DNA of 64,000 nucleotides from Promethearchaeati archaeon SRVP18_Atabeyarchaeia-1 (lineage in GTDB: Archaea > Asgardarchaeota > Atabeyarchaeia > Atabeyarchaeales > Atabeyarchaeaceae): contig CP147779.1 in NCBI GenBank assembly GCA_037308085.1, positions 1,536,001 to 1,600,000 of the forward strand, written 5' to 3'. The position numbers and the translations under genes were made by a program. The notes below the pieces were generated by a model that worked only from the letters and a program-made list of their open reading frames with translations, did no database searches and was not told the DNA's origin. Of this stretch, positions 4,612-55,377 are shown one piece after another (within the stretch, counting starts at the first letter, position 1; the number at the start of each line of letters is the position of its first letter).

Positions 4612-5696
4612 CTACTTAAGGAGTTTCTTGATGAGATTCGCAATCTTCTTTGCTAGGATCGGAGGAACTGCGTTGGCAGCCTGCTGGTACTGACTATTCA
4701 ATGTCCCCATGAATCTGAATCTATCTGGGAAGCTCTGAAGCCTCGCAGCCTCTCTGACAGAGATTATTCCATGCTGCTGCGGGTGAAGAAGCATAGCCCT
4801 TCGCGCATGAACTACCGTCGGCGAAGGCCGACGCCAGGAGAGCCTGCTGTATATACTGCTGTGAAGAGCATCTCGATTATTGAACCTTTTTTAATAGTAT
4901 CAGGCAAGATATTCCATCCTTCCTAAGGCTCTTTCCCTGACCTATCAACCGGATCGTCTCAACGACTTCATCGCTATGTTCAGTGGACCAGTGGTTGTAG
5001 AGTCTGTTAGCTCTCTTCCAAAGCGTTGCGAGATAAGGAGAACCTCTTATCTTTGGGTGGACCACATTTTCTTTCCCACCTCCGCCCCGCGGGAGTGGCA
5101 GGAGATCCTGAATTGCATCACTCACACAGGTTGCGCCTATTCGCTTCAATAACGAAAAATCAAGTTCAGCGTTATCTAGAAAGCCTGCGACAAATAGCCT
5201 CCTTCTCATCTGTGGAATCCCGAACCACTGAGCTTCCAGGCGAGCAATTGAAAGCCTGTAGCCAAGATCGTTTAGATCCTTGTCGAACGCACCCCACTTG
5301 TCCATGTTTTGAAATCTGACAACGTTTTCGAAAAGAAACCCCTTAGGTCTGATCTCTTTGACCAGCCTTACAAAATGGGAAACCGAGGAAGCAGACGGGT
5401 GATTGCCTCTACAAGGATACATGTTCGCAGGCGAATAGGGCCTGACATGGAGGGACCCCAATCACGAATACTCTTTCGAAACCCATACGAGATGCTATGT
5501 CAAGAAGTTCTCGACCATGAACATCCTCTACATCTCCCAGCACCTGCACTTTACGGAAGTTGCGCTGATATGTCTTAGCTGAGTCAGGATCCTTTTCGAT
5601 AGCAGCGACTATCTTAAAACCGGCTTCCCTGAACCCTAGATTTAGCCCGCCTGCACCTGCGAACGAATCTATGACCCCTATATCCTTTGAAAGCAT
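4612..5696 (-). pseudogene. DNA (cytosine-5) methyltransferase pseudogene, paralogue of 16845..17954
   Basis: Motif I DSFAGAGG, PPCQ/PYSPAN, FENV and REAARLQSFPD..NAVPP are split over three reading frames (at least two frameshifts). Confidence 0.9.
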
Positions 5697-6023
5697 TATC
5701 CTACCTCTAGTACACGACCCCTTCGCTCGAAGCAAGATAATCCTTGATCCAATTCACAACTGTCGTTTCGCAGGCGGGACCGGTCGTCTAAACCAGTTTC
5801 TTTGAGGAATTACGGTCTCTAACGCTTCACAAAATCTCAGAGGCAAGCCACACGCTAGCTTGTATGGTTATGCCCTCATGCATCTCGCTTGATTGCTTCT
5901 GTTCTAGGGATAGTCATAGGCAACGAGGTATAAGATTCTATCTTATGGTGTGGAAAGGGCTGATTGAGTAGAGCTGTAGACACACGTTAATCATGTATGA
6001 ACGGAAGGTCCACGCTTTTCCTA

Positions 6024-8951: not shown

Positions 8952-10047
8952 TCTACCACCTATTCTCTTTTGTGTGCATGTTCTTGAGTTTCGCCTCGCT
9001 ACCTTTCAAACGTATGTATCCCTAGGTTGTTGCCGGCTGAGTCACCCGAGCAAACCAGTTCTGTGGAGTAAAGCATTTTAGACGGCATGCTCACTAATAA
9101 AGTGAGTCAAGCCCTAGCTTAATAATGAAATGCTCAGAATCAGTCGTTGCCTCTCTCAGACAGATGCGGGCTTACGCTGAACCGAGCCTTGTATGAGAGT
9201 ATGTTGTGGGCAGTTGATTTGAGCGTCTTTGACAATGGATTATGTTGGACCCTCTACGAGCTGATGTAAGAAAAGAATCCTGTCAAAAAGGAACCAACTT
9301 GGGACACCCGCGCCGTAGACGCAATCGCGATCGGATGCACTGACATCGGATGCAACAGTTTCTATCCACCGGAGTTCTGGGTTTGGAGATGCTACGAATA
9401 TTCTCGACGACAGCGCCAACAAACTCAACATGTGCTTTACAGGCAACGCTCAGAGGAATTCTGCTTTCACGGTCACATGCACTTAGACTATTTGACAGAT
9501 GAATACAGGATTGGGACAAACCCTCCAAGGTTCTTCAAATGGGCAAGACGTATACTGGTCGGTCTCTGGGTTGTCTACCTCGCGGTACGTTTGATCCTAA
9601 ATGTCATGGCGACGGTATTCCGTCTCTCAATAGTGGTATAGCTAAGAATGGAGCGATCGACATGTTCTCGAATTTTTCTTAGATATGCCACCATTCTTGA
9701 GACGGCCGGTGACCGTGGTTCTTTCTCCTTCACTACTAGTGTTGGTCATCCTATACGGTGTATCTGTGTCTGATCATTTCATTTCCATGCGTCAATCCAC
9801 TCGTTCTCAATTCGAGGTGACGCCCAGCAGTTTCCACACTAGCGGTGCGATTGTGTTTTTGAAGAAGCTGAATCCTGCAACCCAGTTCAGGCACACGGCG
9901 AAGAGGAAGCCGTATACAACTATCGTAGCGATACGCCCGGTGAGAAATTGAAGGATAGAGCCTTCTTTGTTGCTATGAGGAGTTCGGCGAACATGATGAT
10001 GGCGCCTAAGCCGAAGAAAATATCCAGCACTGGCTTCAGCGCGCGCT

Positions 10048-10154
10048 ACCATTTGGCAGTTTTAGATTTTGCCGCGAAGATATGCACCGCCAAGAATCCA
10101 AGGCACGAGGAGTGCCCTGTTCGAGCTTCTTGCGACTTCTATAAGATCCTTTAA
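10048..10154 (+). pseudogene. C-terminal relic of an HhH-GPD glycosylase (second Mig-like copy)
   Basis: YHLAVLDFAAKICTAKNPRHEECPVRASCDFY aligns with [32 protein letters not shown] of 15999..16706. Similarity starts at the palindrome 10038-10047. Confidence 0.8.
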
Positions 10155-10220: not shown

Positions 10221-10296
10221 AAAGTTTTATAAATACCAATGTATGTTATTGTATGGAAGCAAATAAATCAAAATACATTCAATATGGCGATGTATG
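10221..10296 (+). promoter_or_regulatory. Archaeal BRE/TATA promoter with TGTATG repeats
   Basis: Purine-rich BRE followed by TTTATAAATA (10226-10235); TGTATG at 10240, 10250 and 10291. Confidence 0.5.
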
Positions 10297-10297
10297 A

Positions 10298-11338
10298 TTG
10301 AGATACATCATAGACATTCCTAGATGGCTGGACGTGAAGATCAAAGCAATATTGGCAGATGAGGGATCAGATTATTCCAGCATCGGGGAATTCATCGTAG
10401 TCGCATGCGAGAACCAAATCAGGATTGAAGCCGAGGACACTGAAGTCGGCTCAATCGAGCCCGTGGCTACGGAGAAGAATGTTCCCAGGAAAGAAAAGCT
10501 AGAACACTTGTTGAGTTCTGATATCTCAGCAGTCTCCACGGTGAATAGTCCAAGTCCAGACAAGGTCGACGCTATTCTGCTATGGGGGCAAGTTAACAGG
10601 ATCTTTCCAATCAAACTGGGCACACGTGTTTTAGCCAACTCTCTCAAAGATATGGGCGCTGGATTAATGAATCTGGAGGATTTTAGAAACAAAGCTACGA
10701 GAATTGCCAGGGAATTCGGTCTGAAATTAAGAATTCTCGACAAGAGGAAAATGCGCAAACCCGGCGAGAAGTTATCAACAGGTCTGCCTGCAGGTAGCAA
10801 GGCAGAGCTTTCAATGAACCGCTACAAGGCGCACTACTTAGCGTACCAGACTGGAAAGGGAACTCTCTCGGGAGCACTTGCTGACCTGCGCCTCGCAAAC
10901 ATCGAAGGCGACAACATTGGCATAACTGAAAAAGGACTAGAGTTTGCAAAGTTAAGCAACCCTCTCCTAGATTCCAAAGAAGCCAATTTGACCATGCCCC
11001 TATCAGGGGGGGAGATCAAATGCTTTCTTTCTCTAGTCAGTGAATTCCTTCCAGACGAACATGCGTTCATGAACACTGTGCTCGGAATGATTGAGTCCGG
11101 AGAGCCTCCAAGGGAAGTGTTCAATTCAAGGGTCAAGGGATTTCTCGAGAAAGTTTGGAAGAGAGAGATAACAAACGCGGTGGCAAATACAATGAGATCG
11201 GGAGTATTGAGTAGGATGTGGGAGCTTAAGCTTGTTGAATGTAGACATGTTGGAAAGACCGTTGTATACTCGGCAGTCAGAGGAAGCGGAGGGGAACTCG
11301 GTGGCGCGAAGGAAGAGGTTTCCAGCAATAAGATTTGA
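10298..11338 (+). CDS. DNA-binding protein: N-terminal RHH-like plus winged-helix domains
   Basis: YIIDIP..LD..I......YSSIGEFIVVACENQI (RHH pattern); IGITEKG and LSRMWELKLVE..YS (wHTH wings). Confidence 0.7.
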   Translation: MRYIIDIPRWLDVKIKAILADEGSDYSSIGEFIVVACENQIRIEAEDTEVGSIEPVATEKNVPRKEKLEHLLSSDISAVSTVNSPSPDKVDAILLWGQVNRIFPIKLGTRVLANSLKDMGAGLMNLEDFRNKATRIAREFGLKLRILDKRKMRKPGEKLSTGLPAGSKAELSMNRYKAHYLAYQTGKGTLSGALADLRLANIEGDNIGITEKGLEFAKLSNPLLDSKEANLTMPLSGGEIKCFLSLVSEFLPDEHAFMNTVLGMIESGEPPREVFNSRVKGFLEKVWKREITNAVANTMRSGVLSRMWELKLVECRHVGKTVVYSAVRGSGGELGGAKEEVSSNKI

Positions 11339-11350
11339 GGTGAGTGTAAG

Positions 11351-13729
11351 ATGAGCGAATCCGGCGTGATGAAGTCTCCTCCGGTAAATTGGTCCAGCTT
11401 CCTAGAACAGGTTAGGCGGGACTACGAAACGCCGCCTGCAAAGGGTGTGGCTCACGGCCTTCAAAAGGACGCGATCCAGAACGGCTGGGGAGCTCGAGTC
11501 ACAGAAAAAGGACATGGATGGTCACTTGCCTTCGTGCTAATTGCTTCCCCCGATGGAAGGCTCTTTCTAACCGCCACCGACGCAGGCACAACTGGATTGA
11601 CAGGCAAAGTCTATGACAATGCGAGAGACCAATTGCCCGATGCGTTTCCACCAACTGAAAGACTCGCTCGTTTTGAATGCATGTTTGACTCTGGCGGCAA
11701 TGTGGGACCAGGTCTTTTCGGACGCGGTAAGCTCATTTTCAACTGTTCCTCGAAAGAGAACCTAATATACTATGACAGTCTGACGAAAGATGGTAGCTAT
11801 CGGTTCGGTAAGCGGCACATTTTAGGCCGCGATTGCCTGCAGTATGAAAGAGTGTTCGAGAACTACGAGGCTCGCGAGAAACTGAAGGAGCTTACTGGTG
11901 GGATTATCCCAGCACTTGAGCAGCCCGGCACGCGTATTATTATTGTGAATCCTGTCCAAGATGTTCTCGAAGCTATTCACAGTGGAGTTTTCCTTCAGGC
12001 AATCGAAGAGACTTGGTGGGAAATCATTCTCAAGTACAACGCGGATATCTCTGTGACGGACGAACACCTTGGCATCTCTCGAGCGCAACTCCCAAAGGAG
12101 TTTGATGGTCTTCCTGAGAAAGACGCGAATGGCTGGCGAGTTTATTATAGGACAAACGAAATTGTCCAAGTAGGAGATCAGGAGCTTCGCATCAAGCACC
12201 TTCATTTTCTGCTCCCACCTGCTGGACACACTCTTCGCGAGGACCTGCTTGGTATTAGCGTTCACAGGCGAGGAATGAAAATCGGTCCGCTTCAGTTGAG
12301 CGGGATCCCTGATGAGATCAGTGATCGGTTTTTTGGATATGTCCAGCTAATGCCAAACTTCGAAGATCTTCTAGCAGAAGCTGAGAACACGGTTCACTAC
12401 GGTTTTGCCGGGCACAAGTACAAGCCGGTCTACCGTGGTCTCAAGAAAACGGTTCAAGACCACTTGGAGATCTTCATGCAACAACTCGGCTATCGGAAAC
12501 CCGGCGGTGACCCGGACTTGCAAGCGAAGCAATTGATGGAAGAAGCCCAAGCTGACCTTAACAGCATCCTTAATGGTATGGGCATTCCTAGTCTCGGAAC
12601 CGGAACCGAAAGGGAGTCGGGGATTTTCCTTTCAGTGGAGGGTTTGATTTTTCCACGCGAAACCAACTATCTCACGATCGGAGATGAAATCTCCGGGTTC
12701 TGGTACTTGATAAGGAATACATCAGATAGCCCACAATCCATTCGCTTTGAGGTCTTCACAAATGAAAGAGATGCTGGCAGAATTGAACCACTAATTGAAC
12801 AGAAACTAATAACAGTCGGAAGCAAAAAGGAGTTCAAGACTGATAAGCTGAAGATCGCTATTACTGAGCATAAGTATAGAAGGAACACAAAGGTGGGTTG
12901 CACAGCTCTCATTACTGACCGGAATGGAAAGACCGAAAGAAAGACCTTTTTTTTCTACATTGACTTGCAGCCTCCAGAAGAAGAGGAGAACCTTGCAACC
13001 ATCAAATTGAAGTCAGCTGAATGGCCCCGGAAGAACTCCCGAAGAGTTGACTATAACCAATCTGTCCGCAACCTGACTTATGAGGTTGAAAACAACACGG
13101 CGCTTAACATGCGGATGGAACAGAAGATTAAGACGCTGTGGACTGCCGAAAAAGAACCGATCGTGGATATCTTGAGAGAGAACGACGAACTAGGTCCATA
13201 TGAAGCAAGACTTCTCAGGGTGGACCAGATAACGATGTCTCGTGAGCAGTACCAGGATGTTCTCCGCGGGACGATTACTTTGCGGTGCCACGCCATTGCA
13301 CTTGAGACAACCAAACTTTGGGAGAAAGGACATCGTCTGGCAGAGCATAACATCAATTTCTATTTGAATATGGATCCTTCATATGGCTTCTTTGAAGAGC
13401 CTGAGTACTTTGATGGAGGGCCTAATAAGCCCCGCTCGGAGACGCAACCACTTGAAGGATCTCGGTCATGGCGTTTGCGTATTAACAGGACTCATCCGGC
13501 CTATCTTGTGGCTAGGACCAATGAGTTGCATCATAAGAACTATCTTTTTGAGGAAATGGCGCGGCAGACGGTTTGCGTCCTTATTCGTACGAATCAACGT
13601 GACCCAATTAGAAAGCTGGCTGAGCTACATGGCGAGGAAGTCGACCAGATGGAAGCCGAAGATGTTGTTCAGAATGTGGCATACTGCATAACGGACAGGA
13701 TCCTTGCTAAATACTACGAGGGGTATTGA
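11351..13729 (+). CDS. GHKL (MORC/MutL/sacsin-like) ATPase with C-terminal beta-rich (Ig-like) domains
   Basis: N-box KDAIQNGWGA, G1 DAGTTG, G2 GLFGRGK, G3 PGTRI; ENTVH motif; beta-strand-rich C-terminal half. Confidence 0.75.
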   Translation: MSESGVMKSPPVNWSSFLEQVRRDYETPPAKGVAHGLQKDAIQNGWGARVTEKGHGWSLAFVLIASPDGRLFLTATDAGTTGLTGKVYDNARDQLPDAFPPTERLARFECMFDSGGNVGPGLFGRGKLIFNCSSKENLIYYDSLTKDGSYRFGKRHILGRDCLQYERVFENYEAREKLKELTGGIIPALEQPGTRIIIVNPVQDVLEAIHSGVFLQAIEETWWEIILKYNADISVTDEHLGISRAQLPKEFDGLPEKDANGWRVYYRTNEIVQVGDQELRIKHLHFLLPPAGHTLREDLLGISVHRRGMKIGPLQLSGIPDEISDRFFGYVQLMPNFEDLLAEAENTVHYGFAGHKYKPVYRGLKKTVQDHLEIFMQQLGYRKPGGDPDLQAKQLMEEAQADLNSILNGMGIPSLGTGTERESGIFLSVEGLIFPRETNYLTIGDEISGFWYLIRNTSDSPQSIRFEVFTNERDAGRIEPLIEQKLITVGSKKEFKTDKLKIAITEHKYRRNTKVGCTALITDRNGKTERKTFFFYIDLQPPEEEENLATIKLKSAEWPRKNSRRVDYNQSVRNLTYEVENNTALNMRMEQKIKTLWTAEKEPIVDILRENDELGPYEARLLRVDQITMSREQYQDVLRGTITLRCHAIALETTKLWEKGHRLAEHNINFYLNMDPSYGFFEEPEYFDGGPNKPRSETQPLEGSRSWRLRINRTHPAYLVARTNELHHKNYLFEEMARQTVCVLIRTNQRDPIRKLAELHGEEVDQMEAEDVVQNVAYCITDRILAKYYEGY

Positions 13730-13730
13730 C

Positions 13731-14399
13731 ATGGATTTTGCAATAGTAACAGAGAAGTATCCGGGAGGAAATATCAAAACTCTGAGATCGACAGTAAATC
13801 CGATTACTCCTGAGCTCGAACAACGTGCGCTCAGGCTTGATTCCTATCTTGGTAGTAGGATTCCTGCAATTGAGAAAGAGCTTATTGATGCTGGGTTGTT
13901 GGACGAGAAGATCCCAAAAGAAGGAAGCTTCAAGAATCAAGGTAATATATCACTCTGGCATGCCCTCGGATTAAGACTGTCCGCGCTTTGTGACAAGGAA
14001 GGTGTGACTAGTGTTCGAGAGCGGCGCTGGCTCTGGGAGGCGATCGAGAAAATCTATGCGACTGAGCGAATCAAACGAATTGGACGGGGGCGTACCAGGC
14101 GCCACTTCGAGTACTGTTACCAGGTTTCCAGGTATCCGATTGAATTCGCAGACCAGTTGAATTGGGCAGAATGGGTCTATTTTTTTGACTCGCGCACTGT
14201 GAGAGAAGAAACGCGGGTGCACGTATGGCTTATGACCCGTGTGAAAAAAGGCGAGAAAATTGATCGATCCACTTTTCGCGTTTTCACGCAACATCTCAAT
14301 AGGCGGCTCCGCAAACTCGACACTTCGGTTCTCAACAACGAGGAACTATTCGCGATATATGATAGAATATGGCAAGGTGTCAAGACCCCTGGGGAATAA
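13731..14399 (+). CDS. Hypothetical protein resembling the DUF1016/YhcG N-terminal domain, with no nuclease domain seen
   Basis: LWHALG...GRGRTRRHFEYCY..SRYP....QLNWAEW pattern; starts 1 bp after the ATPase stop codon. Confidence 0.55.
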   Translation: MDFAIVTEKYPGGNIKTLRSTVNPITPELEQRALRLDSYLGSRIPAIEKELIDAGLLDEKIPKEGSFKNQGNISLWHALGLRLSALCDKEGVTSVRERRWLWEAIEKIYATERIKRIGRGRTRRHFEYCYQVSRYPIEFADQLNWAEWVYFFDSRTVREETRVHVWLMTRVKKGEKIDRSTFRVFTQHLNRRLRKLDTSVLNNEELFAIYDRIWQGVKTPGE

Positions 14400-14664
14400 A
14401 AGCGGGTCTCCTCGACTCTGGTGAACTCTTATTACGATATTTGAGGTCTTGCTTTAGAAGTCCAATTATCCTTGCTCCAAGGGACTTCGCGAAAAGAAGT
14501 GGTATGGCATTCGCGACTTGTTGGGTTGGGAACGCAGAGTACCTAAGAACAAGTAATCATCTGGAAACGACTGGATGCGTGCTGGTTCCCTCACTGAGAG
14601 CCCTCTATCTTGTTCTGGATGAATGAGCATGCTCTTGCGGAGGTTTGTGAGCGCAGCGCGCGCT

Positions 14665-14791
14665 AGCGCGGTGCTATTCAGCTGATGTCTTGAGGAGGCT
14701 ATTCGTCTTCATGTTGCTCAAAAATGCTTACCACGTTGCGGAGATGTTCAGGTATTTCGTCATACTTTGGGTAATATTGCCAGTTTATCAC
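14665..14791 (-). pseudogene. N-terminal fragment of a putative restriction-endonuclease-like gene
   Basis: [30 protein letters not shown], then after a 1-bp shift [10 protein letters not shown], ending at the palindrome. Family resemblance is from recall only. Confidence 0.4.
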
Positions 14792-14878
14792 TTCTGATAC
14801 CTCCCGTACTGATGTCTGCCTCATTCCTGATAACTGTTCAGAAATGCCGAGAAGTCTCAAGACCTCCTAATTCTCTTG

Positions 14879-15709
14879 TCATTTCTTGAGGAAGTTGGTT
14901 TCGATGAGCGCATCAGTCTCTCTCAAAATCGGTATGAAGGTTTTCGCAACATTCGTTACCATGTAGAAGAAATCTTGTCCTTTATCTGTTAACTTCACTG
15001 ATGAAAGTGCACTTATGTAGCTTTGATATGCATCATGGCTCAATCCATTGTAACGGCAGGCGGTATTCTTCACCTCCTGTATGCCACTAACCAGACGGTG
15101 AATCAACCTAGCCTGAACTTTAGAGCTAACATTTCTTACAACCGCATTCCACATGCCAGATTCTGTAATGCCATTCAGTCGCGTGCTTCTTTCTTTCAGA
15201 AAATGATGATCGCCAACGACCGTGATGATCCCGAACCTAATAGTGCCTAACTGAACAGGACTAGAGATTATTAGTTCTGACTCGACCAGATAGTCCGTGG
15301 CCAATACGAGACTGCTGTGAAAGAGTATTTCCGCATCTTTGTCGCTCTCCGCACCGAGATAACTCGAAAGGTGCTCAGCGTCAATACAGTAAAGGTTCAA
15401 TTTGCCCAAATTCGCGTCTTGAACAGTCTCATCGTTTGACTCATGATAGAAACAGGGCAAGCCCAGCAGTGCGTGTCTTATGTGACAGACTTCGTGAAAC
15501 GCAATAGATCTTTTGGCCCACTCGGGGTACTTCCTCATTTGTGTGGTGTATTCAATTGTAAAACTATCATTTGTAGTTTCGCCTACCACCCACTTTGCTG
15601 GAGGTACGAGCTGTGCGTTCTCTTTTAACACTATGCGCTGTTCAATTCCGTAAAACTTTTTCGCGTCCTCCAACCGCGTCTGAAAGGGCGACAGATCCGT
15701 TTTAGACAT
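14879..15709 (-). CDS. HExxH (zincin-like) hypothetical protein
   Basis: SIAFHEVCHIRH motif. Confidence 0.6.
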   Translation of the reverse strand: MSKTDLSPFQTRLEDAKKFYGIEQRIVLKENAQLVPPAKWVVGETTNDSFTIEYTTQMRKYPEWAKRSIAFHEVCHIRHALLGLPCFYHESNDETVQDANLGKLNLYCIDAEHLSSYLGAESDKDAEILFHSSLVLATDYLVESELIISSPVQLGTIRFGIITVVGDHHFLKERSTRLNGITESGMWNAVVRNVSSKVQARLIHRLVSGIQEVKNTACRYNGLSHDAYQSYISALSSVKLTDKGQDFFYMVTNVAKTFIPILRETDALIETNFLKK

Positions 15710-15738
15710 TCTATCATCCCCGGTACACTTTCTTGCTC

Positions 15739-16012
15739 TCACATCATTGTGATCTTTCCTCTGCCACCCACGTTAAGCTCTCCGAATATTGTGAATTCCG
15801 TTTTCAATTCTGACTCTATCGCCGACATTTACCATCTCAACCTGTCCTCTCCAGAGGCTCAGCTTAATTTCTTTGGTTTCGTCTCTCAGAATTACCTGAG
15901 CGTAAAGGGCCTGCCCAAACCGGGTCTGTATCGTCCTTTCCTCAGATTTTTCAATTATGGTGCCCTCCACGTTTATCTATTCCATCCTTTCGCCAATATC
16001 ACTTATTTTCAA
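15739..16012 (-). pseudogene. Single OB-fold SSB/RPA-like pseudogene
   Basis: LKISDIGERME*INVEGTIIEKSEERTIQTRFG..LRDETKEIKLSLW..GDRVRIENG; in-frame TAG at 15977-15979 plus a frameshift before FGELNVG. Confidence 0.75.
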
Positions 16013-16706
16013 TCTTCATCGTCGTTCCAGCATAATAGTCGCATATCTCATTGTTGGGGCACTCCCTGCACTTTGGATTCTTCGGTTTGCATACAGCAGC
16101 GGCAAAATCCAAAAGGGCAAGATTGAAATCTCTGCCCTTTCCCGGCATAATGAGCCCTGAAACAAAATTCCAAAATTCTGGGTCTGTTCTCGCCCTCTTT
16201 TTCCGCGCCCTTGGTGAGAACACGCGCTGGACGACTCGAATTGCGTTGGTATCCACTAGCGGCACGTCCTCACCTGCTGAAAAACATAGTACTGCATTGG
16301 TAGCATACATGCCAACTCCCGGCAGTTTGAGAAGCTCTTCTTTCTTCAAGGGAATGGTTCCACCGTGGCCAGACACGATACTGTCTGCAAGCTTCTTTAG
16401 GAGCAGTGCCCTTTTGTGCTCTATTCCGAGTGGCTTTATTATTTCTACGATGTCCGAGGTAGACGCCCCTGCCAGAGACGCCACGTTGGGAAATGACTTG
16501 ATGAACTTGGGAAAGATCTCTCTGACCTGATTCCTTGAAGTCTTTCTGAGCAACATCTCAGCTATGAGAATCTCATAGGAATTTCTTGTTCCCCTCCAAG
16601 GGAATGATGATGTGTTCCGTACATGCCATAACAAAAGTGTCTCGGAGAATGCCCGGCTTTTTACCAGAACCGATGTTTCACTACCAGTCACCCGCTTACT
16701 CACCAC
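15999..16706 (-). CDS. HhH-GPD DNA glycosylase with 4Fe-4S cluster (Mig-like T:G mismatch glycosylase / MutY family)
   Basis: FPWR..YEILIAEMLLRKT, HhH LPGVGMY, VDTNAIRV, C-x6-C-x2-C-x5-C; no MutT-like C-terminal domain; directly downstream of Dcm. Confidence 0.85.
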   Translation of the reverse strand: MVSKRVTGSETSVLVKSRAFSETLLLWHVRNTSSFPWRGTRNSYEILIAEMLLRKTSRNQVREIFPKFIKSFPNVASLAGASTSDIVEIIKPLGIEHKRALLLKKLADSIVSGHGGTIPLKKEELLKLPGVGMYATNAVLCFSAGEDVPLVDTNAIRVVQRVFSPRARKKRARTDPEFWNFVSGLIMPGKGRDFNLALLDFAAAVCKPKNPKCRECPNNEICDYYAGTTMKIENK

Positions 16707-16844
16707 TGAGTTTCGAAATGATAGCCTTCAGACTTTCGAGATCTCGATTCCGATAGCTTCCTATTAGAATCCCCCCAACATCCTGTGCGAGCCTCTCGAT
16801 CTGAACCCGATCTAGATAAGCCGACTGGCGTCTACCTGAACTCA

Positions 16845-17954
16845 TCACAGAACGCCTCCTCCTCTACCATCCAACAACCTCCTGATCAAGTGCGCGACCG
16901 CCTCTGCCACGAGCGGAGGGACCGCGTTAGCAACTTGTTGATATTGATCATTCAGCGAACCCATGAACCTAAACCGGTCTGGAAAGCCCTGGAGCCTTGC
17001 AGCCTCTCTGACAGAAAGTATCCTATGTTGCCCAGGATGAAGAAGCATGGCTCTGCGCGCGTGGACTATGGTTGGAGAAGCCCGCCACCTGCACAGCCTG
17101 CGGTAGATGTTACTGTGAAGAGCCTCAAGATTGGAATATCTCCCTTTAATATCCTCAGGTAAGCGCTTCCATGACCTCCGAAGACTCTCTCCTTGCTTTA
17201 TCAAGCGTATCGTGTCGACGACTTCACTACTGTGCACGGTGGAACGATGGTTGTAGAGCTTGGTAGCTCCTTCTAGAAGTCTCTCCACATAGAGGGATCC
17301 ATTCTTCATTGGGTGGACTGCATCATCCTTACCTCCTCCGCCCTCGGGTAGCCGTGGCAAGCCGCAAATCGCCTCTCCGACATGAGTCGGCTCACGATGT
17401 CCCAATAGTGAAAAATCAAACTTAACCCCATTCTTAAAGCCCGCAACAAAAAGTCTTCTTCTTATTTGCGGCACCCCAAACGTCCGCGCGTCGAGATGAG
17501 AAAACGAAAGCGTGTAACCAACATTGCTGAGAGCATTGACAAACGTCTCCCAGGTATTCATGCGCTGAAACCTCACGACATTCTCAAAGAGAAAGCCCTC
17601 AGGCTTGGTCTCTTGAACTATCCTAACAAAATGTGACACCGAGGAAGCGCAGGGGTGTCGATCACCATTGTTCTTGTGCGTATTTGCAGGCGAATACGGC
17701 TGACAGGGAGGCCCACCAACCAGAAACAATCTGTCAAATCCTGCACTAGCCGAGATGTCGACAAGGTCGGCACCATGAACATTCTCTGCATCTCCAAGTA
17801 GACGTACTTCAGGGAAATTGAGCTTGTAAGTCTGAGCGGAAGGAACATCTCGCTCCACAGCAGCAACTATTCTGAATCCAGCTTCCCTGAAGCCTAAACT
17901 AAGCCCGCCGGGACCTGCGAACAGATCTGTGATTGCGACATCTTCGTAAGGCAT
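16845..17954 (-). CDS. dcm: DNA (cytosine-5) methyltransferase
   Basis: DLFAGPGG, GGPPCQ, FENV, PQIRRR, REAARLQGFPD, NAVPP. Confidence 0.95.
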   Translation of the reverse strand: MPYEDVAITDLFAGPGGLSLGFREAGFRIVAAVERDVPSAQTYKLNFPEVRLLGDAENVHGADLVDISASAGFDRLFLVGGPPCQPYSPANTHKNNGDRHPCASSVSHFVRIVQETKPEGFLFENVVRFQRMNTWETFVNALSNVGYTLSFSHLDARTFGVPQIRRRLFVAGFKNGVKFDFSLLGHREPTHVGEAICGLPRLPEGGGGKDDAVHPMKNGSLYVERLLEGATKLYNHRSTVHSSEVVDTIRLIKQGESLRRSWKRLPEDIKGRYSNLEALHSNIYRRLCRWRASPTIVHARRAMLLHPGQHRILSVREAARLQGFPDRFRFMGSLNDQYQQVANAVPPLVAEAVAHLIRRLLDGRGGGVL

Positions 17955-18257
17955 CACGCCGCCCCCCGCACACAAATTAAAGGGCATTCGCTGTGGTGAA
18001 GAGACCCGAACGTGAATTGAACCAATATCCACTAGTCAATGCCAAGCACTTGAAATGACTTCCCCCCGTAATGCATCGAATCCCTGACCACACTGAGCGA
18101 TAGTGGCACAAACGACCCGCCGAGAATTGATTATGGCGTTGCCTTGCCAAGTTTGTGCCAATCATGTCTGTACCACATTCATTTATGAGTAGCGGAGTAT
18201 AAAACTCTAGCTCTTTCTTCAGATGCAGGGACAATGTAAGACTGCTCTCCCAACATT

Positions 18258-19547
18258 CTATTTCTCTACCTGATTCTCTTCGCTATGTTTGTCTTCCCTA
18301 TGTGTCAGACCGATCACTGTCTTCAACGCCTTCTCCAAATCTTCGATCCTCTTCTCCATGTTCTGAATGGCATAAGCCTGAGTGTCGTTTCTGACTCTGA
18401 GCTCTAATACTTCCTCCTTATCTTCAGACTTGACTGCTACTCCGAGTCTCTTATTCATGCTTTCCAAAGCATTTGTCCTGCCAGCCAGGTCGGAGACTAT
18501 ACCCAGTAGTTTCTGATTCTCTTCTCTGATCTCCGCAACATTATCTTTGAGACCGTTACCGTTGCCATTACTGATCGAAAGATAAGGCTCATACTTTAGG
18601 TATTGTTGTTTGACCTCTTCCGACTGATTCTCCCTGTATGCTTTCCCAAGGCTGCCGATAGCATGACCTAACCAGAATTCTATGATCGAATCATTGCATC
18701 CATTCTCCGCCAATATCTTGGAGAAACTTGATCTGAGTGCATGTGGAGTGACATCACTGATCGGCTCATCGCCTTTGATCAATCCTGATCTCTTCGCAAC
18801 ATCTCTGACCATTACTTCCACTGCGCTCCGACTCAGCGGCTCAAAGACCTGGCCCTTTCGACCGTACTCCTTAAAGAATAATGGATCGCTTTTTCTCAAT
18901 TCAATGCCCTGGGCATTCTTCAGGTCTTCAAGGTATGTTTTCAGCGCTGATACTGCGTCGAAACCCAGATACGTGTTGAACCGTGTGTGGGTCTTCTTGC
19001 GAAGTAGATCAAGTCTCAAAGGATGCTCGCTCTCTTCCAGGCCTCTGGCGACATCTCCGTAGGTCAATCCTGTAAGAGTGGAGACATCGATCCCACTCTG
19101 ATACATCACCAAGATCACGGCCCTGTCCCGAATCGACAAGCAGTGATCAAGCATTTTCCTAACGTCTTTGGGAACGAGTTTTCTGCGCCTGAACTTTATC
19201 TCACTGTCTCCCAGATTCATTCTCACTCTCACGTCAAACGTAGCGTAAAAGCTGCGGATCGCCATCACTGCCGACCTAGACGACTCTTCGGTATGATTCT
19301 TCTTCATGTGATTAAGAAACCCTATCAGTGATATTGACACAACATCTCTTCGCTCTCTAACATCCATTCTCTGATCCTCAATCGCTTCGTCTATGACCTG
19401 TCTGGGAGTCTTCTTGATGTATTCGAGATACTGCCTTAGTCTAAGCAGGTAGTTTCGGCGTGTGCGCTCTTTCGATTGCTTCATTATCCACCTGCTAACA
19501 TAAGCGTCCTTCAGTAGTTGCTCATTTACCCCTGTTTCAACCGTCAA
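18258..19547 (-). CDS. Tyrosine recombinase/integrase with C-terminal coiled coil
   Basis: RDRAVIL..SG, RKKT, HALR, WLGH, AY; N-terminal SAM-like region. Confidence 0.9.
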   Translation of the reverse strand: MTVETGVNEQLLKDAYVSRWIMKQSKERTRRNYLLRLRQYLEYIKKTPRQVIDEAIEDQRMDVRERRDVVSISLIGFLNHMKKNHTEESSRSAVMAIRSFYATFDVRVRMNLGDSEIKFRRRKLVPKDVRKMLDHCLSIRDRAVILVMYQSGIDVSTLTGLTYGDVARGLEESEHPLRLDLLRKKTHTRFNTYLGFDAVSALKTYLEDLKNAQGIELRKSDPLFFKEYGRKGQVFEPLSRSAVEVMVRDVAKRSGLIKGDEPISDVTPHALRSSFSKILAENGCNDSIIEFWLGHAIGSLGKAYRENQSEEVKQQYLKYEPYLSISNGNGNGLKDNVAEIREENQKLLGIVSDLAGRTNALESMNKRLGVAVKSEDKEEVLELRVRNDTQAYAIQNMEKRIEDLEKALKTVIGLTHREDKHSEENQVEK

Positions 19548-19772: not shown

Positions 19773-21341
19773 AGCTGTTCGGATGGACTGTATAAATAGA
19801 TGCAACTACATGTAGGTGAATGTGGAACGGCTATGCTCTTCCAGGGAAGCGCCCTTAGTTGCTTGGGTGCCTGCGTCAAGGTCATGCAGGGCGGGGACAG
19901 AGCAGGCAGGAGCCCTGCGAGAAGCCACAAGGACCGAGAAATTACGAGGCGAATAGGAAGCTTCTCCAATCAGTCAAGGAGGCGGGACTATCAGCACCGC
20001 AGTTGCAGCAGCAGATCCAGGGAAGCATCATAGGTGGAAAACTAGAGAAGGCGAAAAGAGGACCATCGCAGTAGAGTACCAGCCATCCAGTAGCATGCTC
20101 AAATACCTTGAAGATATGAAGGACGCATTAGTGGCGTTTCTCGCCCAGGCATACGCCTCAGCCAAGATAAGCGGCCGCCTCTTGATCCCCAACCCGGTTG
20201 CGCTGAGGAGGAGGGTGAAGCCTTGGTTCGACACCCGCTATGAGTATGCGAGGCACCACGTCAATCCTCTCTGCAGGACGGCCGTGGCGCTCCTACGGTC
20301 GTACAGGAAGAGGCATGGGAGACTCGCCATGCCCCAGGTCAGGAGGCTAGCCATGAGGATCGACTCCGAGCTCTTCCGCCTCACACTGAACCCCGGCGGA
20401 AGCGTGACCGTCAGGGTCACCCTGAAGCCTTTCACCTACGAGTATATCACCTTCATTCCAGGTCACAAGAAGTGGAGCGAGTACAGCGCTGCAGGGGAGG
20501 CGTGCGAGATCCTGTTGACGGACAGGAAACTCTGCGTCACCTTCGCCCTAGGGCGTAGTAGCGGGAAGCCCCTGGCTGCGAGGCTGGCTGGTTTGGACCT
20601 CAACTTTCACAGCGCAGACTCCTCAGCGTTCAGCAGCGGTAGCATGGGGCTGGAGTCACCTCACACCAACTCCCTTAACAGGGTGGTGCAGGTTCAGAAC
20701 GACTTCTCGAGGAGGCGGAGGCGCATCCAACTGCACGTCAGGAACCCGGGGAAGAGAGAGAGGAAGCTTGAGGAGACGAGGGGCAGACAGAGAGACAGGG
20801 TTAAGGATGCGCTCCACAAGCTGTCAACCAGGATCGTCCGAGAGAACCCTGGCACATCATTCATCTTCGAGGACTTGAAGGGCATTAGGCAGGGAAGACG
20901 AAGAGGCCGGCATGATCGGGCAGGCGGTAGGAGGCTGAGGACGTACCTGAACCGCTGGCCCTACAGAGCCTTCCAGAGCATGGTGGAGTACAAGAGCCGG
21001 TGCAGGACGCTGTACGTTAGCCCGAGGGGGACCTCATCGAAGTGTCCCGTCTGCGGTGGAAAACTTGAGCACCCAGCTTGGGCAATAAGCAGATGCAGAA
21101 CATGCGGCGTGGACTACGACCGGGACAGGCTCGCCTCCCTGGCGATACTCCAGCGCGGTCTGCGCCTATGCGGCCAACCGTTTGCCGTGAGTGCGGCTGC
21201 CTCTTGGCAGCAGATGAGGAGTGAATACCTGTACACCCCCGGAGTGCCCAAGGCCGGGGGAGCAGGCGGGACCAAGCATGCTGCCAACGCACCGAATAGA
21301 AGTGCGGCCAACCTCCACGAATTTCCACATTTCTAGAAACG
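19773..21341 (+). mobile_element. IS607-like element with internally deleted tnpA and intact tnpB
   Basis: TnpA relics (VERLCSSREA / LGACVKVMQGGDRAGR HTH-like, then RSH); periodic T(T/C)TCCAC-type repeats at the right end; GAAACG at both junctions. Confidence 0.65.
20095..21336 (+). CDS. tnpB: TnpB RNA-guided nuclease
   Basis: RuvC-I GLDLN, RuvC-II FEDL, Zn finger CPVC..CRTC, RuvC-III DRD. Confidence 0.92.
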   Translation: MLKYLEDMKDALVAFLAQAYASAKISGRLLIPNPVALRRRVKPWFDTRYEYARHHVNPLCRTAVALLRSYRKRHGRLAMPQVRRLAMRIDSELFRLTLNPGGSVTVRVTLKPFTYEYITFIPGHKKWSEYSAAGEACEILLTDRKLCVTFALGRSSGKPLAARLAGLDLNFHSADSSAFSSGSMGLESPHTNSLNRVVQVQNDFSRRRRRIQLHVRNPGKRERKLEETRGRQRDRVKDALHKLSTRIVRENPGTSFIFEDLKGIRQGRRRGRHDRAGGRRLRTYLNRWPYRAFQSMVEYKSRCRTLYVSPRGTSSKCPVCGGKLEHPAWAISRCRTCGVDYDRDRLASLAILQRGLRLCGQPFAVSAAASWQQMRSEYLYTPGVPKAGGAGGTKHAANAPNRSAANLHEFPHF

Positions 21342-49095: not shown

Positions 49096-49553
49096 ATGAA
49101 ACACCGAGACAGCTTGGTAGGTAACGTGTGCACATAAATATTGCTTTTCGAAATTCGCCTCTCTGTATCTAGCCAGCAAAATAACGAGAAGAACCAAGGA
49201 GTCGCATAACTGCTCAGTTCTGCACAATGTCTACTTGAGTGCCTTTTGCTGAGTGCAGATGCCATTGCCTATCCCAAGAACCCCGTATATGAGGCTAGTT
49301 GCGGGAAACTGCGTATGGACAGAGAGCGCACCAGCGAAAGACTCCAACACTCAACGGTATTTGAGTCTAGTTCTGCCGGCATCCTCTTTTAGCGCGCGCT
49401 GCGCAGATTGCAGTGAAAGCTGGAATCGACTCAACAAAATGAAGTCTAGTATACTGAATGCAACTTATGGCAACTTGAAGAAACCTCTACCATTTTGCAG
49501 TGTTCAGGATAGCCGCGGGGTCATGCTATGGTGGGCAAAGCCCATGATCTTAT

Positions 49554-55147: not shown

Positions 55148-55377
55148 CCTTCAGCAGCGCGCGCTAATTGAAACCAGAGCCAGGCGGAGAGGATGGTGTG
55201 GTGGCACTTCTCAGATAATATTTCGCAGAGACTAGCAGAGAGATCAGAAGAGGCGATGTGGAGCTACCCTAGACGCATAATGCATGGTCTCGGTATTGAG
55301 CGGTCAGCCAGACGCTCAAAAGTAATATCAATAGTGCAGATCGGAGGGGCGAGAGAACGGAAAAAATACCGCCGTCT

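Follow-up and report, generated by a model that had tools for sequence, protein, structure and literature searches.

A predicted methylation-linked, MORC-like defence cassette in an Asgard archaeon

The three-gene operon and its proteins

The genome of the Asgard archaeon Promethearchaeati archaeon SRVP18_Atabeyarchaeia-1 carries a three-gene operon, here called A-B-C, which was analysed within a stretch of 64,000 nucleotides of contig CP147779.1 (positions 1,536,001 to 1,600,000; hereafter the window). Gene B encodes an ATPase of the GHKL+S5 type with a MORC-like fold and gene C its obligate partner. The B-C pair recurs in Bacteria and Archaea, in most loci beside a C5 cytosine DNA methyltransferase (Dcm) and a gene for the repair of T:G mismatches, Mig or Vsr. 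The operon comprises the following features, with positions counted from the first nucleotide of the window.

10225-10310, + strand: promoter and putative operator region, TATA-like TTTTATAAATA and a repeat cluster reaching the TTG start codon of A
10298-11338, + strand: gene A, TTG start, 346 amino acids (aa)
11351-13729, + strand: gene B, 792 aa
13731-14399, + strand: gene C, 222 aa

With only 12 bp between A and B and 1 bp between B and C, A-B-C is a tight operon, and an earlier note made from this DNA sequence had the gene boundaries right. The TATA box and the repeated TGTATG motifs that it had ascribed to the operon are likewise present upstream of A. The TATA-like TTTTATAAATA is located at 10225-10235, and copies of TGTATG near the start of A lie at 10240, 10250 and 10291. 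The hexamer ATGTAT or its complement ATACAT occurs four times within 75 bp (10239, 10273, 10290 and 10303), compared to 0.04 copies expected. The clustering is local, as TGTATG is not enriched across the whole window (21 copies observed vs 19.5 expected). Repeats of the TGTAT type are also found in another locus (L013), upstream of an A homologue with a near-identical ribbon-helix-helix (RHH)-like head. Judged by this pattern, the ATGTAT/TGTATG repeats could form an operator for the RHH-like head of A.

None of the three proteins matches a model in Pfam, NCBIfam or PADLOC, and profile searches with A, B, C and a 77-aa protein that replaces A in other loci returned nothing significant against the sequences of the Protein Data Bank (PDB). 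An AlphaFold model of B (predicted local distance difference test score, pLDDT, 86) consists of a GHKL (Bergerat) ATPase and S5 transducer module at residues 10-384, a helical linker, Ig/FnIII-like beta-sandwiches at residues ~420-715 and a C-terminal helical domain at residues 716-790. Structural comparison of residues 10-384 with VIA-align yielded SMCHD1 with a Z score of 22.7 (root-mean-square deviation 4.1 over 326 residues), MORC3 with 21.4, Hsp90 with about 20 and MutL with 17.2; MORC2, MORC4 and Topo VI-B also match the module, and the Z scores range from 17 to 23 overall. The beta-sandwiches match RbmA and transglutaminase beta-domains in Foldseek searches. The GHKL motifs, namely motif I with N44, motif II with D77-x-G79-x-x-G82 and the glycine-rich ATP lid with G121/G124/G126-K127, vary little or not at all among 56 sequences of the family, the strictly invariant residues being N44, D77, G82, G121, G124, G126, K127 and H349. 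Motifs and fold thus both uphold the identification of B as a GHKL ATPase in the earlier note. The N-box reads KDAIQN, with D40 at the position where GHKL enzymes usually have the catalytic glutamate, and this substitution, which had been pointed out for the window protein, holds for 55 of the 56 sequences, the remaining one having glutamate.

Pfam models HATPase_c and HATPase_c_3 match 0 of 32 members of the B family at E<=1. Short forms of B (~670 aa) lack residues 545-675, corresponding to one sandwich; longer, fused forms were not found, and no relatives were found in viral contigs. B contains no PD-(D/E)xK, DUF3684 or DUF4263 domain and no match to TmtA. In a search for a concealed nuclease site, residues H349, N456, N712, H715 and Y731 were seen to be conserved. 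An INRTHP motif precedes the helical tail.

The model of C (pLDDT 92.6) shows a helical protein with an N-terminal beta-hairpin. Neither Foldseek (best E value 0.3) nor VIA-align (best Z 5.3) matched it to a solved structure, a search of the ESM Atlas gave nothing, and Pfam and PADLOC models did not match C, the latter having been run on 54 family members. The family forms 315 clusters among 1.84 billion representatives, and the best 150 relatives listed are all stand-alone proteins without fusion to other domains. The only invariant residues are G80 and W145. No support was found for the label "DUF1016N-like" that C had been given: the commonest Pfam matches listed at E<=0.5 for the 54 relatives of C do not include a DUF1016 model, and the fold searches did not turn up any solved structure of a DUF1016/YhcG N-terminal domain.

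A has an RHH-like N-terminus followed by a predicted double winged-helix DNA-binding body. The ESM Atlas gave double winged-helix and FokI-recognition-like matches to A, which serve as leads only, and its C-terminus weakly matches an ArsR-type winged helix-turn-helix (wHTH) domain (E 0.03). The designation "RHH-wHTH" in the earlier note is thus in keeping with the sequence pattern and these weak matches, and nothing firmer emerged for it. In some A homologues a zinc ribbon takes the place of the RHH-like head. A direct comparison of A with the recognition part of an AlwI/FokI-like endonuclease revealed no relationship, and this candidate was rejected.

Conservation of B-C and linkage to cytosine methylation

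The conservation of the operon was assessed in 144 loci, of which 64 are from genomes of many bacterial and archaeal phyla and 80 from metagenomes. C directly follows B in 55 of the genome loci and 68 of the metagenome loci (123 of 144), and the pairwise distances of the two proteins are strongly correlated (r 0.88). B and C co-evolve tightly, and C is an obligate partner of B. The gene upstream of B is more variable. Homologues of A occupy this position in 15 genome loci and 31 metagenome loci (46 of 144 in total). Among the 64 genome loci, the 15 with A compare with 18 that carry a 77-aa helical protein and seven with a MazE-PIN pair, and no head gene was found upstream of B in the remaining loci. 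A is therefore one of three interchangeable head genes. As it is present in just 46 of the 144 loci and replaced elsewhere, A cannot be the general recognition subunit, the role that the earlier note had proposed for the wHTH protein. The 77-aa head protein (L007:7734-7961 and 17 other loci) has F12, R19, N35, Y39 and Y41 as invariant residues and no relative in Pfam or the PDB; its comparison with A showed no relationship, and a common origin of the two was rejected.

Dcm lies beside B-C in 33 of the 64 genome loci and 55 of the 80 metagenome loci (88 of 144). Of the metagenome loci, 21 extend for 2.5 kb or more to either side of the module, and 19 of these have Dcm. In 53 of the 55 Dcm-linked metagenome loci the methylase is located within 1.5 kb of the module. 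The slot between B-C and Dcm is usually filled by Mig or Vsr: Vsr (PF03852) occurs in 15 genome loci and six metagenome loci, Mig in 12 and 43, respectively. The median gap between module and Dcm in the metagenome loci, 699 bp, is the size of such a repair gene and has room for just Mig or Vsr, and hence no other conserved gene parts B-C from the methylase in most Dcm-linked metagenome loci. The co-occurrence of B and C elsewhere and with methylases, on which the earlier note had made its proposal depend, is thus found in Bacteria as well as Archaea, and Dcm with Mig or Vsr adjoins B-C in most loci with enough flanking sequence. In the B tree, most of the major clades include loci with Dcm linkage, and the Dcm genes concerned are themselves diverse, with a median identity of 28%. 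The loci without Dcm have heterogeneous neighbours, including recombinases and GmrSD, and no N6 or N4 methylase family recurs beside them.

Variants of the cassette were also observed. In locus L006 (6448-9672) an OLD/AriA-like ATPase is embedded between B-C and Dcm, and in locus L011 (3479-7435) the same place is taken by a PRTase, an ORC/Cdc6-like protein and a CARF protein. The embedding of genes was treated as a sign of defence systems by Payne et al. 2024 (bioRxiv 10.1101/2024.01.29.577857). Two loci (L026:4094-7729 and L030:1322-4985) contain a 77-aa head, a B of 430 aa that is restricted to the ATPase module, a PD-(D/E)xK protein and Dcm. The PD-(D/E)xK protein has 256-261 aa, belongs to Pfam family NOV_C and gives a match to the C-terminal part of TmtA from Tiamat. 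In L030, this nuclease was considered as a relative of C or of the B tail and rejected, since no relationship was detected.

The island around the operon

The operon is situated in an island whose further features are listed below.

10032-10151, + strand: relic of a Mig-type glycosylase, last ~40 residues including the Fe-S cluster loop (tblastn with nine Mig proteins, E values to 2e-10)
14455-14663, - strand: relic of a C5 DNA methyltransferase, last ~70 residues, frameshifted (tblastn with ~25 Dcm proteins, E values to 9e-13)
14879-15742, - strand: HExxH protein, 287 aa, no family match in Pfam, NCBIfam or PADLOC
15773-15970, - strand: OB-fold open reading frame, 65 aa, weak Ssb-like OB match (E 0.01)
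15999-16706, - strand: intact Mig/MutY-like HhH-GPD mismatch glycosylase (PF00730, E 9e-13)
16845-18032, - strand: intact C5 cytosine DNA methyltransferase, Dcm (PF00145, E 9e-59, full length)
18258-19547, - strand: tyrosine recombinase at the island edge (PF00589, E 2e-18; XerA-like, E 2e-26, below the model cut-off)
1224-1235, 10037-10048, 14654-14665, 49390-49401 and 55155-55166: copies of CAGCGCGCGCTA

The Mig relic to the left of the operon, recognised in the earlier note, matches all nine Mig proteins that were used as queries. To the right, the note had described a string of Dcm, Mig, a single-stranded DNA-binding protein (SSB), an HExxH protein and a truncated nuclease-like gene. The intact Dcm, the Mig-like glycosylase and the HExxH protein are there, and the SSB corresponds to the weak OB-fold match. 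The "truncated nuclease-like" reading frame (14466-14630) is actually the frameshifted C-terminal relic of a C5 methyltransferase, which matches PF00145 with in-frame stops. The intact glycosylase also matches TIGR01084 (mutY; E 4e-47, below the model cut-off) and the PADLOC model "type II nicking endonuclease" (E 1e-47). Two genes that had been counted as members of the string, the SSB-like and the HExxH gene, have 0 homologues in the 64 genome loci, are not kept with the module and are local passengers outside the conserved cassette.

The Mig relic is cut at the CAGCGCGCGCTA copy at 10037-10048 and the Dcm relic at the copy at 14654-14665; these two copies are in direct orientation, 4617 bp apart. 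As both relics are cut exactly at CAGCGCGCGCTA, the operon resembles a piece of a larger cassette, Mig-A-B-C-Dcm. The core of CAGCGCGCGCTA is the palindrome AGCGCGCGCT, and the window contains 20 matches to CAGCGCGCGCTA with up to two mismatches, compared to 3.2 expected. The flanks of its copies share no similarity. Recombination may take place at CAGCGCGCGCTA.

All PF00145 matches of the whole 2.8-Mb genome fall inside the window, and only one of them is intact, 2.4 kb from the operon. A third C5 methyltransferase (4615-5714, - strand) is a pseudogene spread over three reading frames and 56-70% identical to the intact Dcm. Three generations of Dcm thus lie no more than 13 kb away from the operon, and the Dcm next to it has been exchanged repeatedly in this genome. 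B is single-copy in its own genome and absent from 30 relatives of the host, including members of the same genus. The cassette is mobile. An nSTAND3 NLR-like gene adjoins on the left side, and toxin-antitoxin pairs and recombinases are found nearby; neither a tRNA nor long direct repeats were found at the island ends. Just past the recombinase lies a TnpB/Cas12f-like gene (20095-21336, + strand; OrfB_IS605 with a Cas12f1-like TNB domain). The MutL-type S5 domain (PF01119) was not found in the genome, which is 97% complete.

Relation to known systems and proposed function

GHKL ATPases of the MORC and paraMORC families in predicted Dcm/Vsr restriction-modification operons were described by Iyer, Abhiman & Aravind 2008 (PMC2292703), who predicted such cytosine-methylase-linked ATPases to be restriction components. 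As a kind these operons have therefore been known since 2008, and the earlier note's claim of a new system was overstated. The new aspects here are the family to which the ATPase belongs, protein C as its partner, the possibility of Mig instead of Vsr, and the fact that neither a helicase nor a nuclease is present. Like the MORC/paraMORC operons, the cassette combines a GHKL+S5 ATPase with a C5 cytosine methylase and a very-short-patch repair enzyme and has a patchy, laterally mobile spread in Bacteria and Archaea. B shares with paraMORC2, compared by its published description and not by reference sequences, an ExxxH motif just after S5 (E345-x3-H349 in B); the glutamate is found in 42 of the 56 sequences and replaced by glutamine in 14, and the histidine is present in all 56. 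In contrast, the S5 motif GhXhhpXXRhl of the MORC family (Iyer 2008) was found in 0 of 32 B members in a regular-expression scan, and no Pfam HATPase model matches these members. B differs further in its inserted beta-sandwich domains and its obligate partner C, Mig often stands in the place of Vsr, and B-C has no superfamily II helicase, Z1, AIPR or restriction-fold nuclease as a partner. Within the window, the absence of Z1, AIPR, a helicase and a recognisable nuclease that the earlier note had reported was confirmed.

Three loci from Bacillaceae genomes (L072-L074) hold classic Dcm-Vsr-HATPase_c_3-Z1-DUF4420-AIPR cassettes. Like these, B is linked to Dcm and Vsr, and their ATPase resembles B in the aspartate at position N-4 of motif I (ADxIDNSxDA, compared to KDAIQN) and in an LNR[SN]HP motif before the helical tail, which recalls the INRTHP of B. 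Their ATPase is, however, only ~500 aa long and without beta-sandwiches, and genes for Z1, DUF4420 and AIPR are absent from all B-C loci examined. Membership of B in the Z1-linked HATPase_c_3 family was rejected, as the hhalign probability for the whole protein is below 1%; the tail motif alone gave a non-significant match (E 0.004, probability 9%).

No named system of PADLOC matches the operon. PDC-M33, a three-gene candidate that PADLOC lists from the "guilt-by-embedding" approach of Payne et al. 2024 (bioRxiv 10.1101/2024.01.29.577857), is weakly matched through its PDC-M33A model by three of 32 B relatives (best E 0.0024). The window B has no match, and the 54 C relatives have 0 matches to the PDC-M33 models (M33B, M33C); the gene content therefore differs from PDC-M33, and by sequence B would be at most a remote relative of PDC-M33A. 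Tiamat and GHKL-Shedu (paraMORC3, VcSduA) are single-protein GHKL ATPase-nuclease defences (bioRxiv 10.64898/2026.09.30.754977; PMC12137116). They share with B an N-terminal GHL ATPase, thought to be a dimeric clamp in anti-phage defence, and in the variants L026 and L030 a short B is accompanied by a PD-(D/E)xK protein of the NOV_C/Tiamat type. Unlike them, B has no nuclease domain, a separate partner protein and a link to cytosine instead of adenine methylases. The best structural matches of the B ATPase module are the eukaryotic MORC and SMCHD1 proteins (Z 19-23), which have a functional link to cytosine methylation as B has by its gene neighbourhood. Unlike these proteins, B has no CW, hinge or coiled-coil domain, the identity is ~12% and the MORC signature motif is absent; the likeness is one of fold and not of family.

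On these grounds, the operon is proposed to belong to a methylation-linked clamp defence cassette of the MORC/paraMORC kind, a prediction to which we give about even chances. In its usual form the cassette consists of a head gene, B, C, Mig or Vsr, and Dcm. Dcm would put a 5-methylcytosine (5mC) mark on the host DNA, and Mig or Vsr would mend the T:G mismatches that arise from 5mC deamination, the mutational cost of the mark. B is predicted to dimerise upon ATP binding and to clamp DNA, and C may dock on the beta-sandwiches or the helical tail of B, perhaps as an adaptor or regulator. The head gene product, here A, would bind DNA and probably repress the operon via the ATGTAT repeats. The B-C engine would then act on DNA that lacks the Dcm mark and either block or compact it or pass it to a nuclease outside the conserved core. 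In this genome, cuts on either side would have separated the operon from such a cassette, with the remnants of Mig and Dcm still attached. The fold search bears out the MORC-like GHKL reading of B that the earlier note had put forward, whereas its clamp or silencing action and its self-protection by 5mC are retained here as predictions.

Several observations weigh against this proposal. A, B and C yielded neither a nuclease nor any other effector domain, a conserved polar or catalytic-looking site is missing from C, and the aspartate in place of the glutamate at the catalytic-base position of B may imply slow or no hydrolysis. Dcm linkage was lost in a gammaproteobacterial sponge-symbiont clade and a clade of the candidate phyla radiation (CPR) of the B tree. 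Among five genomes with unlinked B-C, four hold Dcm elsewhere, and PF00145 has no match in the fifth, a 1.8-Mb chromosome that carries B-C; the pair is thus not toxic to its host when Dcm is missing, nor does it strictly depend on Dcm. The trees of B and Dcm track each other weakly (r 0.23), and this, together with the diversity of Dcm, would hardly be expected of a restriction component with a fixed sequence specificity. Moreover, an ordinary restriction endonuclease candidate lies beside Dcm in at least eight loci, and B-C could accordingly be an accessory and not the restriction arm.

This last point leads to an alternative in which a conventional, often unrecognisable type II endonuclease cuts the DNA and B-C loops or clamps it or regulates the reaction. 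Seen as a type II restriction-modification locus, the window has an intact methyltransferase and no recognisable endonuclease; restriction endonucleases are often missed by profile searches. In locus L005 a protein matching the PADLOC model REase_II (E 3e-97) lies between Dcm and Vsr, an AlwI/FokI-cleavage-like protein is found beside Dcm in L004, L007, L009, L020 and L021, and L026 and L030 have the NOV_C protein described above. Looping that couples recognition and cleavage is also the role proposed for paraMORCs by Iyer et al. (PMC2292703). Such an accessory role is nevertheless regarded as quite unlikely, given that no endonuclease family consistently accompanies B-C, that the window itself offers no endonuclease candidate, and that the short gap between module and Dcm holds just Mig or Vsr in most Dcm-linked metagenome loci. 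The occupant of that gap could also point to repair, with B as a MutL-like matchmaker that together with C helps Vsr or Mig to fix the T:G mismatches derived from Dcm, and with mobile Dcm cassettes carrying B-C into hosts without MutL. B does share its GHKL+S5 module with MutL, E. coli MutL stimulates Vsr (reviewed in PMC2292703), in the majority of loci it is a repair gene that directly separates B-C from Dcm, the PF01119 result marks the present host as one without MutL, and a generic repair partner would explain why diverse Dcm lineages are tolerated. However, Vsr is a nuclease and Mig an unrelated glycosylase, which makes one partner for both unlikely, and no MutS-like mismatch sensor is present. 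B-C also persists in clades and in one genome without linked or detectable Dcm/Vsr, and neither a DNA-binding or toxin-antitoxin head gene nor a defence-island setting would be expected of a repair accessory, an explanation that is thus considered improbable.

Finally, B-C could be an autonomous module of an abortive-infection, toxin-antitoxin-like or mobile-element maintenance type, which came to lie close to Dcm by co-transfer within defence islands. Dcm is missing from about half of the genome loci, whose neighbours are heterogeneous, with recombinases and GmrSD, a MazE-PIN pair can act as head gene, and the two direct copies of the short palindrome that flank the operon in the window give it the look of a movable segment. 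Against this, the linkage is specific to C5 methylases that come with a repair gene, the genes are immediate neighbours, the arrangement is found repeatedly, in most clades of the B tree, no N6/N4 methylase family takes over beside the Dcm-less loci, and Dcm has been replaced repeatedly beside the operon in this genome. The probability of an autonomous module is accordingly put low.

Within the clamp defence proposal, a more specific and doubtful version is that B-C provides nuclease-free, methylation-gated immunity, in which the clamp would trap or compact DNA without the host 5mC and thereby silence it. The free exchange of Dcm suggests that B-C may have no fixed sequence specificity of its own. 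In the nuclease-free version, specificity would come from the neighbouring Dcm and not from a recognition subunit of the module, and borrowing it in this way would explain why Dcm genes are freely swapped. The system would then be a prokaryotic, and here Asgard-archaeal, counterpart of MORC/SMCHD1 silencing.

In the literature searched, no published experimental test of a Dcm/Vsr-linked GHKL ATPase was found. The cassette is small, with five genes, and widespread, its ~300 sequence clusters coming from numerous phyla of Bacteria and Archaea; Pfam, NCBIfam and PADLOC do not see it, and no nuclease can be recognised in it. Annotation pipelines gain two new families, B and C, together with a clear genomic signature. 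If the cassette does defend its host, it would reveal the way in which prokaryotic DNA methylation is read by a MORC-like clamp, with implications for the origin of eukaryotic MORC/SMCHD1 silencing.

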